The position numbers are program-made. Shown one piece after another: positions 9,001 to 12,000 of a stretch of DNA of 21,405 bases. Each line of letters begins with the position of its first letter. Position 1 is the stretch's first letter. This DNA is from Candidatus Nanohaloarchaea archaeon (GTDB lineage Archaea > Nanohalarchaeota > Nanosalinia > Nanosalinales > Nanosalinaceae): positions 1 to 21,405 of the forward strand of contig JBEQAY010000018.1 in assembly GCA_041640075.1 (NCBI GenBank). Reading direction: 5' to 3'.

Positions 9001-12000
9001 CTGTTTAGGAGAGTCAAGCACGTGAGCTTTTCCGTTTCCAATCTTTGATCCGATAGCAGCTCCTTCAAGCACTACTTCAGATTCTTCTTCAAGTTTGTAG
9101 TCCTCGATTACGTTTTCATCCTTCTCCGCCTGCACGGTCTCCGGACGGGCCTGCACGATGTAAAGCTCCTTGGTCTGACCATCAAGAACCCATTCAATAT
9201 CCATGGGCTTATCATAGTGTTCCTCGATACGCATAGCGTATTTGGCCAGCTCCTTGACCTGGTTATCAGTTATGGAGAACTGATCTCTGTCTTCCTGAGG
9301 AACATCAACTTCCTTGTTCTCTTCATCGTCTCCCTGCTCATGTTCATCATTCCTTACAAGCTTGATCTCCTTGTCCCCAAGATTCTTTTCAATTATACCA
9401 AGATTTTCCTTGAAAACCGTGAACTCGTCAGGATTGACTTCTCCCAAGACGACGTACTCTCCAAGGCCGTAAGATGCGTTGATGGTAACGACATTGTCGA
9501 AACCAGAGTCCGGGTCCAGTGTGAACATGACCCCTGAGGCTCCTATGTCAGAGCGCCCCATCTTCTGGACGACTGCTGAAAGCTTGACGTCGAAGTGGTT
9601 GAAACCTTTGTCCTCTCGATAAGAAATAGCTCTGTTCGTGAATAATGAGGCAAAGCAGTCCTTGATTCTTTTAATAAGATCTTTTTTTCCTGATACGTTC
9701 AGATAGGTTTCCTGCTGTCCTGCAAAAGATGCTCCGGGCAGGTCCTCGGCTGTGGCTGAAGAACGAACAGCTACTTCAGGGTCTTCCACACCTATTTCCT
9801 CTGAAAGTACTTCGTATGCTTCTATGAAATCATCACGCAGATTTTCAGGCATGTCCGCTTCCTTGATCAACGAACGAATTTGTTCTCCTCTTCTCTGAAG
9901 ATCATTCACATCATCAGTGTCCAGGCCATCAAGTAATCTTTCAATCTTATCTCTCAGTCCTGTATCATGTATAAACTGATCGTATGCTTCCGATGTGGTC
10001 GCGTAGCCTGGTAGAACAGGTACGTTTGTTTCGTTTCTGAGTTCTCCAAGGTTTGCGCCTTTTCCTCCAACTTTTGCGGTGTCGTCGGCTGTGATTTCCC
10101 CGAATCCGAGAACATTCTTCATACTTGATTATTGCCGGAAGCTGCCATATAAAAAGGCCGTTATCATCAGAGAGTGAAACTTCTGAGAAAGAACTTTTTA
10201 TGTAAACTTAATCTCTCTGGACTATTGTACGGTCGATACGTCCTATCTCAGGTCCGCTAGTGTCCTCACCGACCAGAATCACGTTATCGTTAGCTGCTGC
10301 ACCCGAACCCACGAATGGAGAACCTGTGTTCACGGTTCCAATATCGACATCTTCAAGATCAAGAACTTCTTTCAGTTTCTCTGCCTCATCTTCAGATGCG
10401 TCTCTGTGAATAACCGCTCCATAAGAGTTTGTAACAGCTGTTGAGCCGACGTTTCCGATGCCTGCGATTTCCCCGACCTCTACAGGTACTTCAAGAGCAT
10501 CGGAGATCTCTTCCTTCTGGTCTTCAAGCCTTTCGCTGATCAAAGCACCGCTGTCGTTCGCCAGTATCTGGTTCCCGAGCGCAGTTTCTTTGGTATCGAT
10601 TACCTGGAAGTCTACGTTTGACTCTTCAAGCTTACTATGTTCTCTATCTGTTATAGTATCTGGTACGAGTATGCAGTTCGAATTTCCGGCTGTGAAAAGC
10701 CCTACAAGTCTTGTACGTGCGATGAATGTCTCACAGTAATCTGTATCAAGATCTTCAGTTCTCTTGAACTCTGGAGGTACTATACTCTGTTCCTGTGAGG
10801 TTGTTACGTAGAAACCTATGTTGATGTTGCCTTCGTAGTTGTATCTTTGAATATCCATTTTCTTACTCCAGAAATAAATTGAGAGAAAAGATCTGTGGTT
10901 TAATCGATGTCGTCTCTTCTCCAGTGCCTGTCTTTTCTTGGCTTGATGGACTTCTTTGCTGCTCTGTCCATACCGAAGGCTTTGAGTGAAACCCATCTTG
11001 GAGCGGATTTCGCCTTCTTGTTGGCTTTAGCCAGTTTCTTCTTCAGCGCTGAACTCTTGTTTGAACTCATAATTCAATTTTCACCTCCTGAAACTTATAT
11101 TACCCTTGTCTTCCTGCTTTTCATCTTGAAGCTCTCTAAGTATCTCCTTCAACGAACCATCGTCAACTTCACCTATACGACCCATCTCACCGAGTCTTGC
11201 AATCTGAGCGGAAACCGCGTGCGCAAGCTCAGGTTTAGCAGCCCGGATATTCCCCAATCTGGAAATTGCTTCCTGGGTCATGTACTGGTAGGCTTCCTGC
11301 TTTACAGACTCTCTCTGCTCCTCCAGCCGCTCTTCACGGTCTTGATCGCTACCTTGCTGAAGCTCTTCCTTCTTCTTTTCACGAAGCTTTTCCAGTTCGT
11401 CTTCATCCATAGGTTATCGACCCGAAGATCAGAGATCTTCTGAGAGGCTGTAACTTGAAGGGTTACAACCTTTACTGAACTTCTTCAGATTTTTCGTCCA
11501 GGAAGCTCTTTCCTTCGTCTGTAATCTTCCGGCCTTCTCCTTCTTCTGTTTCTACAAAGCCTGCTTCCTCCAGGTTCTGAAGAGCTGTCCTGATAACTTT
11601 CCCGGAAGCTTTTCCGTGGTGCTCCGGTCCATGCCCATTGTTCTCTCTGCTTCCGTAGATTGTACGGAGTTTTGAGACTCCTAGAGGGCCGTCAGTATAG
11701 ATTCTTCGCAGGATTGCTGCACTTCTGATATGGTACCAGTTGTCCTGCTGTGGAGGACTGTCTCGATCGCTTCCGGACTTTACGTAGTTCGTCCATTCCG
11801 GTGCTTCGAATTCATCCTCTAGCTCTTCCGCTACTTCCTGAATAAGCGGCTCTGCTTTTACATCGTAAACAGTTGTCATACAAGAACAACCGATGCTCAA
11901 AAACTTTTAAATGAACTTGAAATTCGGGAAAGGCTTAAACATCTATGAAGCTCAAGTCCCAATGTGTGAGTGTCTTCAGTTATCTTAGAAATCTAGGCGA

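Follow-up and report, generated by a model that had tools for sequence, protein, structure and literature searches.

Introduction

The archaeal gene cluster S19e-COG2118-L39e-L31e-eIF6 (PMC10833476) includes the gene for ribosomal protein eL31 (L31e) between those for eL39 and the initiation factor. Within the large subunit of archaea and eukaryotes, eL31 has no protein partners; in yeast it is non-essential, but its loss severely limits growth (PMC9932298); joint loss of eL31 and eL39 is lethal in the same organism (PMC9226512). The protein is located opposite uL29 across the exit site, cross-links to beta-NAC in yeast (PMC4508901), and enters the same rRNA crevice as bacterial bL17, with H47, H61, H100 and 'H10' as lining elements (PMC11354259), the last of which we read as H101. 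The ribosomal proteins listed as non-ubiquitous are eS25, eS30, eL13, eL14, eL20, eL30, eL33, eL34, eL38 and eL41 (Table 1 of PMC9932298), a list on which eL31 does not figure; lineage-specific losses further affect L39e, which some very small genomes lack (PMC9932298; Galperin et al., bioRxiv 10.1101/2021.01.31.429008).

Results and Discussion

The eL31 slot is empty

The window analyzed here comprises 21,405 nucleotides, positions 1 to 21,405 of contig JBEQAY010000018.1, from a Candidatus Nanohaloarchaea archaeon (assembly GCA_041640075.1, hereafter G000). It holds the cluster with the following features, given in contig positions:

11472..11879, minus strand: eS19 (S19e), first gene of the cluster, ATG at 11879 (Pfam PF01090, E 2.8e-48)
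11081..11410, minus strand: PDCD5-like dsDNA-binding protein (Pfam PF01984, E 2.3e-15)
10900..11070, minus strand: eL39 (L39e), 56 aa, intact (PF00832, E 7.3e-4; NCBIfam PRK01242, E 8.4e-7)
10859..10899, minus strand: empty eL31 slot, a 41-bp spacer without recognisable eL31 remnant in its sequence
10208..10858, minus strand: eIF6 (aIF6), 216 aa (PF01912, E 2.6e-53; TIGR00323 above cut-off)
7549..10122, minus strand: PEP synthase (ppsA), next gene downstream, flank only (PPDK_N, E 7e-127)

The genes for eS19, the PDCD5-like protein, eL39 and eIF6 are adjacent and co-oriented, as in the described archaeal L31e cluster, and the positions that the survey's finding had assigned to them are borne out by coordinates and Pfam and NCBIfam matches. 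The slot between eL39 and eIF6 does not hold eL31: the eL39 stop is separated from the eIF6 ATG by 41 bp, a spacing also claimed in the survey and verified from the sequence, and the spacer, which is pyrimidine-rich with a GGAG motif ahead of the eIF6 ATG, yields no profile match. Contigs from four of four public runs (four studies, one possibly of the source sample) bridge the eL39-eIF6 junction, with 0, 35, 2 and 1 differences over 494, 818, 257 and 209 bases, respectively, and because all of them cross without insertion, the empty junction in G000 is no assembly error. The downstream ppsA gene is also located 3' of eIF6 in four genomes of genus g16.

Searches for eL31 in the remainder of G000 were equally unproductive. 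Pfam PF01198 returned 0 matches at E<=10. A 30-row nanohaloarchaeal eL31 profile, exploited with all filters off against 28,042 six-frame segments, reached a best E of 1.3 (1.9 for reversed sequences), and 0.81 with stops read through, while a 70-row pan-archaeal profile attained 0.68 (reversed control 1.5). Across tblastn searches with each of 30 eL31 cores, the best E was 0.028, the matches being spread across several contigs. The earlier claim that the gene is found nowhere else in G000 is thus sustained by Pfam, two custom profiles and tblastn, and the worry that a divergent eL31 had escaped detection is countered by the lack of any match to the nanohaloarchaeal as well as the pan-archaeal profile. 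The filters-off search covered G000, and the remaining genomes of the family rely on a first-pass profile search together with the empty slot. SRP19 was not found in G000, which is a single bin.

Distribution within the family is patchy

The names Nanosalina and Nanosalinaceae are those of the survey; here the genus and family of G000 go by the codes g1 and f1. In family f1, eL31 is present in 25 of 50 genomes, and the other 25 lack a match to two custom profiles. The scores of the nanohaloarchaeal profile are bimodal, with 25 genomes at E<=7.3e-21 and 25 with a best E>=0.05, and a 56-row pan-archaeal alignment reproduces the split (25 at E<=1.2e-18, the rest no better than 0.042). With the pan-archaeal profile, 0.042 is also the level of secondary matches in genomes that retain eL31. 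The gene is absent in 10 of 21 genera, the negatives being g1 (6/6, including G000), g2, g10, g12, g13, g14, g19, g20, g21 and two of the four genomes of g16, where the gene-wise identities of the locus, checked for recombination, are mixed. The loss is consequently family-wide but patchy, down to differences inside a single genus.

The eL39-eIF6 slot is visibly empty in 23 of the 25 negatives, with 0-102 bp left, and eL39 is kept in all 23; the other two, G022 (eIF6 and eS19 not found) and G069 (eIF6 at the contig start), have no assembled slot and are uninformative. All 25 retainers hold eL31 directly after eL39 (the contig of G025 ends inside the gene), and therefore eL31 has never been seen relocated within the family. 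Four single-contig genomes, G058, G040, G047 and G065 (95-99% complete), lack it, and together with the published tables of strain LC1Nh (see below) they extend the absence to closed genomes, not merely bins. A detection miss is not indicated either, the absence having withstood six-frame translation, a sensitive profile and positive controls.

The survey had presented the loss as a trait of Nanosalina, leaning on one complete relative. This relative, G058, indeed lacks eL31 according to the custom profiles, with a gap of 78 bp from stop to ATG (the 81 bp given earlier fits if the stop codon is counted), and all six g1 genomes show an empty slot and no eL31. The trait thus holds for the genus, but it is not restricted to a single one, as 10 of 21 genera are affected and it arose several times. 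Similarly, the 153-aa eL31 in the slot of G053 was recovered, and the absence in G040 and G047, formerly grounded on Pfam only, now has the backing of two custom profiles and the empty slot.

In retainers, eL31 evolves under normal purifying selection (dN/dS 0.085 over 11 pairs, vs 0.047-0.128 for 21 other genes), so that no decay of the gene ahead of its loss is visible. A relaxation of selection in these genomes was accordingly not seen. Single-contig genomes without eL31 are not smaller (0.96-1.12 Mb) than those with it (0.92-1.05 Mb).

The pattern extends to published cultured strains, which are possibly among the genomes already counted and do not represent independent counts. In Ca. Nanohalobium constans LC1Nh, eIF6 (204095-204739) and L39e (204790-204963) have consecutive locus tags and are located 50 bp apart, and no L31e is listed among 30 of the 32 '50S ribosomal protein' rows of its tables (PMC7443923). 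The paper claims a complete ribosomal protein set (PMC7443923), and despite this claim the strain's own published tables show the empty slot. Two other cultured strains, Ca. Nanohalovita haloferacivicina BNXNv and Ca. Nanohalococcus occultus SVXNc, encode L31e of 153 and 73 aa, respectively, each between L39e and eIF6 (PMC10443357). The three strains thereby offer a series of absent, tail-less and tailed eL31 for direct structural comparison.

The single 'L31e' entry in the co-culture proteome file of LC1Nh is that of the haloarchaeal host, detected as protein (PMC7443923). As nanohaloarchaea live attached to their hosts (PMC7443923), one may speculate that the symbiont imports host eL31. We regard this as hardly credible: none of the results obtained here shows protein transfer, and close relatives that live in the same way retain an eL31 gene of their own under selection.

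Controls beyond the family

The order comprises 70 genomes, the same set as at phylum level. In its other nanohaloarchaeal families, eL31 is found in 17 of 20 genomes, the three negatives also being without eIF6 and eS19. Together with the 25 of 50 genomes of f1 and the tree, this distribution signifies that eL31 was present ancestrally. Among the 50 most distant loci listed with the nanohaloarchaeal profile (L263-L312, spanning Methanobacteria, Thermococci, Bathyarchaeia, Aenigmatarchaeota and others), 41 have eL31 beside eIF6 and none of the remaining nine shows eL39 beside eIF6. When genomes of these distant controls with an eIF6 locus devoid of eL31 were searched, the gene was located elsewhere in four of five.

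Two further DPANN phyla proved instructive. In the phylum of G071 (locus labelled Woesearchaeota), eL31 is present in 297 of 301 sampled genomes, some of them of 0.5-0.6 Mb (294 of 298 upon removal of three genomes flagged as unpublished, G412, G413 and G471), and genome reduction or small size alone therefore does not explain the loss. In the phylum of G070 (labelled Aenigmatarchaeota), Pfam detects eL31 in 87 of 99 genomes. We checked 10 of the 12 negatives; eight possess an eIF6 locus, all eight with a divergent eL31 beside it, and two lack an eIF6 match. For these eight genomes, a loss in this second phylum was consequently rejected. Pfam alone can thus miss eL31, yet in the G070 phylum the gene occupies the slot, whereas in f1 the slot itself is gone.

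These controls bear on the notion that eL31 has been relocated and diverged beyond recognition, or resides in unassembled or unbinned sequence. G000 is 89% complete and distributed over 58 contigs, divergent eL31 of another phylum escapes Pfam on its own, and some genomes there carry the gene away from eIF6. However, eL31 is missing from four single-contig genomes and from a published closed one (which may overlap with them), the 25 retainers of f1 all hold it in the slot with no sign of relocation, the broad profile finds all eight divergent copies checked, and relocation combined with extreme divergence would need to have recurred 3-6 times. A hidden copy is therefore very unlikely, and we are highly confident that the eL31 gene has been lost.

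The loss is recurrent

We next asked how many events the distribution requires, using a set of 30 markers (21 of the S10-spc cluster, four RNA polymerase subunits, NusA and the four locus genes; 6,325 columns), with FastTree on 58 of 68 genomes (10 outgroups omitted) and IQ-TREE under LG+G4 on 32. The eL31-negatives fall into six groups, namely G061, a clade of g2/g10/g12/g14/g20/g21, g1, g13, G047 and G049, for a minimum of six changes of state. In AU tests (25 taxa, 5,994 columns), a single clade of all negatives is rejected (p 2.6e-36, with a likelihood gap of ~2,000 units, the constrained trees being derived from fast searches and maybe under-optimised), and so is a single loss. Smaller monophyly hypotheses were also tested using hand-edited trees: g1 joined to the large lost clade (p<=1.3e-4), as well as g13+G047+G049 and G047+G049 (p<=0.007), are rejected, while the test leaves a grouping of G061 with the large clade standing (p 0.079). 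The placement of G061 is the least certain, this genome having a long branch and an unusual composition. On the tree, the data correspond to 5-6 losses without regain, or at least three losses and one regain in G048+G050, the exact number being uncertain.

Counts of changes on a tree cannot distinguish gain from loss, and the earliest-branching member of the family, G061, lacks eL31. One ancient loss at the base of f1, with the gene later reacquired laterally several times in the same slot, may then be envisaged, particularly as a regain in G048+G050 costs no more steps than separate losses. The eL31 gene tree argues against such a scenario, as all 25 f1 copies form one clade apart from other families (100/98) and seven of eight multi-genome genera are held together (the forks of g7 and g17 being unresolved or mixed with neighbours). 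Moreover, no sampled donor emerges for G048+G050, and every regain must land exactly between eL39 and eIF6. We deem this scenario highly improbable.

A shuffled terminal domain does not substitute for eL31

The survey also reported that a terminal domain of ~45 residues is attached to uL24, uS3 and eS24 in G000, which proved correct, the domain being present on two probable membrane proteins as well. A hint of the survey was that its presence on uL24 stands in for eL31. In f1, the domain ends eL31 in 22 of 25 retainers (two are tail-less, one is cut by a contig end), and is found on uS3 in 23 of 23 genomes seen, on eS24 in seven seen, and on RpoA'' in several outgroup genomes. On uL24 it is detected in 17 of 21 negatives vs 12 of 21 retainers (Fisher p=0.18, related genomes not being independent; G035, cut by a contig end, is omitted). 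In four genomes, G040, G041, G042 and G049, eL31 is absent and uL24 lacks the domain too, and 10 of the 12 retainers with the domain on uL24 also have it on eL31. The stand-in role hinted at is therefore not upheld, and relocation of the domain from eL31 to uL24 as a compensation was rejected, since it is present on uL24 in 12 retainers too. The domain is a widely shuffled tail, independent of the loss of eL31, and no replacement of it.

The predicted fold of the tail comprises three helices (pLDDT 89.5). A fold search retrieved only generic helical matches (best Z 5.7), a PDB sequence search gave nothing below E 0.02, and a local Pfam scan assigned no family. The nearest clusters in the ESM Atlas have scores of 0.87 and 0.81 (below 0.9), with DUF8129 (PF26450) on 12-13% of members, an Atlas likeness that we take as a weak lead only.

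Does another component occupy the crevice?

That the loss recurred within a single family suggests that its members share an enabling change, and the crevice is already occupied by unrelated folds in bacteria and archaea (PMC11354259). Congruent with an occupied site, the helices lining the crevice are free of deletions in genomes without eL31. It is thus conceivable that an unrelated protein, or an extension of a ribosomal protein, fills the crevice and made eL31 dispensable. Displacement by bacterial bL17 was rejected, as no PF01196 homologue was found in any of the five eL31-negative genomes tested (of 25), while 10 of 10 bacterial controls match. Furthermore, there is no length gain in uL22, uL23, uL29, eL19, eL39 or the uL3 C-terminus of the negatives, and among 77 small basic candidates in G000, judged by eye, none stood out as a new ribosomal protein, in a screen limited by the gene caller having missed short ORFs such as eL39. 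Aggregated, these observations render a non-homologous replacement other than bL17 unlikely.

A compensating change in the rRNA was not apparent. Among near-full 23S sequences of f1, no column separates the seven eL31-negative from the six retaining ones; six columns come close to separating them, with 60 permutations giving 2.5 on average and at most 21. The stretches covering H47, H61 and H96-H101, helices placed using the Rfam structure, hold no indel that segregates. At position 1402, immediately 5' of H47, all nine negatives have G and five of six retainers A, but this position adjoins an ambiguous gap.

A column scan of the 30 markers yielded four segregating columns, three of them in uL22, while shuffled labels give 1-20 (12 shuffles). 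In 13 held-out uL22 sequences, seven of eight new retainers are without Arg36 and Lys74, and one of five new negatives has both. Co-evolution of uL22 with the loss was consequently rejected, the columns being no more numerous than for shuffled labels and failing on the held-out sequences; the trend is confined to one subclade, with Arg36 in nine of nine retainers and two of nine negatives. In summary, the enabling or compensating change sought in 23S rRNA, uL22, uL3 and uL24 was not found.

A ribosome with a putatively vacant site

As bL17 is missing from the five eL31-negative genomes tested, neither known occupant of the crevice is encoded there. We consider it quite likely that eL31 was removed by repeated clean deletions, resulting in a ribosome with neither eL31 nor bL17 and an empty crevice. 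The gene has been cut cleanly from the eS19-PDCD5-eL39-eL31-eIF6 operon, leaving no copy elsewhere in the genome, and the tree shows that this deletion recurred in f1, through 5-6 losses or at least three and one regain. As a partner-less, peripheral 50S protein that plugs an rRNA crevice near the tunnel exit, eL31 would be removable in one step. It may have become of small benefit in f1, plausibly as the rRNA packing to which it lends stability is screened by molar K+, and streamlining deletions could then have been fixed repeatedly, with the 50S subunit presumably assembling and translating with the crevice empty. Judging from the genomes, it is likely that the ribosome works with the eL31 site unoccupied. 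NAC is still encoded by G000.

Salt alone is not sufficient for the loss, because Haloferax volcanii (detected as a Pfam control) and 17 of 20 nanohaloarchaea of other families keep eL31, and the haloarchaeal host expresses it. On a broader level, it is rather probable that a crevice filled in bacteria, archaea and eukaryotes has been left empty or newly filled here and that this arose three to six times, while sister species keep eL31 under purifying selection.

eL31 has been treated as one of the fixed archaeal and eukaryotic ribosomal proteins. A natural, repeated knockout opens the question of what the protein does in archaea, be it to pack rRNA, to help assemble the subunit or to dock factors such as NAC at the exit site, and strains with and without eL31 are in culture. 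The loss is also relevant to the minimal ribosome and to the value of eL31 as a genome-completeness marker in nanohaloarchaea. The protein is used in archaeal marker sets.

Relation to known systems

Full-text searches, with most subscription papers outside their scope, retrieved no report of eL31 absence in nanohaloarchaea, and two nanohaloarchaeal phylogeny preprints make no mention of L31. 'L31e' does not occur in the main text, tables aside, of a COG survey that includes one nanohaloarchaeon (bioRxiv 10.1101/2021.01.31.429008), and a brief earlier record may exist, for example in the tables of that survey.

Compared to the archaeal L31e cluster (PMC10833476), four of the five genes keep their arrangement and direction in this locus, with L31e excised and 0-102 bp left in its place. 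The yeast rpl31 deletion (PMC9932298, PMC9226512) demonstrates that ribosomes function without eL31, eL39 then being required, and the retention of eL39 in 23 of 23 empty-slot genomes is what the lethality of the yeast eL31/eL39 double loss would predict. The yeast mutant is however engineered and grows poorly, whereas the nanohaloarchaeal losses represent natural, fixed lineages. Bacterial bL17 is a positional analogue of eL31 in the same crevice (PMC11354259), but was not found in the five negatives tested. Loss of archaeal ribosomal proteins is already known as a type of event. As in the known cases, a peripheral protein has been lost independently in a small-genome lineage, yet here its absence is patchy among members of one family, and another DPANN phylum with small genomes retains the gene in 297 of 301 of them.

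The eIF6 gene and its surroundings

In the genome under study, the open frame of eIF6 (window positions 10208-10996, minus strand) extends 46 codons further upstream and thereby overlaps eL39. Considering that the length of this frame varies from 216 to 258 aa among relatives with a full match, the extension and its overlap are probably due to chance. The eIF6 of one relative (L055, G056:C7) contains a frameshift at around residue 113 that may stem from an error in sequencing. A nanohaloarchaeal eL39-eL31-eIF6 locus was also recovered in a record titled Colwellia polaris (L247), a label that consequently looks wrong. 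Two further features of the window were annotated:

1953-2026: tRNA gene (Rfam RF00005)
7549-10122: PEP synthase, extended at its C-terminus by an additional winged-helix domain (DUF2582, E 1.9e-11)

Ribosomal protein clusters, rRNA genes and associated factors

The S10 ribosomal protein cluster of the genome under study harbors a RimJ/RimL-like GNAT acetyltransferase gene (L057:11322-11843; G000:C1:53321-53842), flanked on one side by SUI1 and on the other by a gene that probably encodes an RNase P subunit. In the clade of genera g4, g6, g7, g8 and g17, the S10-spc cluster has a break upstream of uL29 (L076, L077, L084, L096, L100 and L101), with eS24 nearby and uL22 located elsewhere. Outside the window, the studied genome carries a second uL14 (G000:C53:1005-1403), 85% identical to the copy on contig C1, on a contig of 2.4 kb where the start of eS4 adjoins uL14; this contig probably represents contamination from another nanohaloarchaeon.

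The 23S rRNA genes of two genera contain inserts of 296 and 740 nt (L219 of G065 and L220 of G061, respectively), both at a single site equivalent to position 2003-2004 of the 23S rRNA of the genome under study, and these are probably rRNA introns. The 23S gene of G056 appears to be split by several kb. SRP19 (PF01922) was not found in the whole genome under study, a single bin that is 89% complete, and NAC was found.

The terminal domain on eL31 and on other proteins

The eL31 of genus g17 is devoid of the tail, being about 72-75 aa long (L049:1268-1492 and L188), and the pair from this genus is the most divergent of the 11 eL31 pairs compared, at 49% identity. In family f5, the terminal domain is present in duplicate on eL31 (L005, L008, L012, L013 and L014) and often on uS3 as well, and it is also attached to RpoA'' in families f4 and f5. 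At window positions 17076-18515, a minus-strand frame weakly matches the profile of the terminal domain (E 0.028). Finally, the domain is present in two probable membrane proteins of the genome under study (L059:1189-1641 and L060:1319-1984), C-terminal in one and N-terminal in the other, and may thus serve as a general interaction tag.
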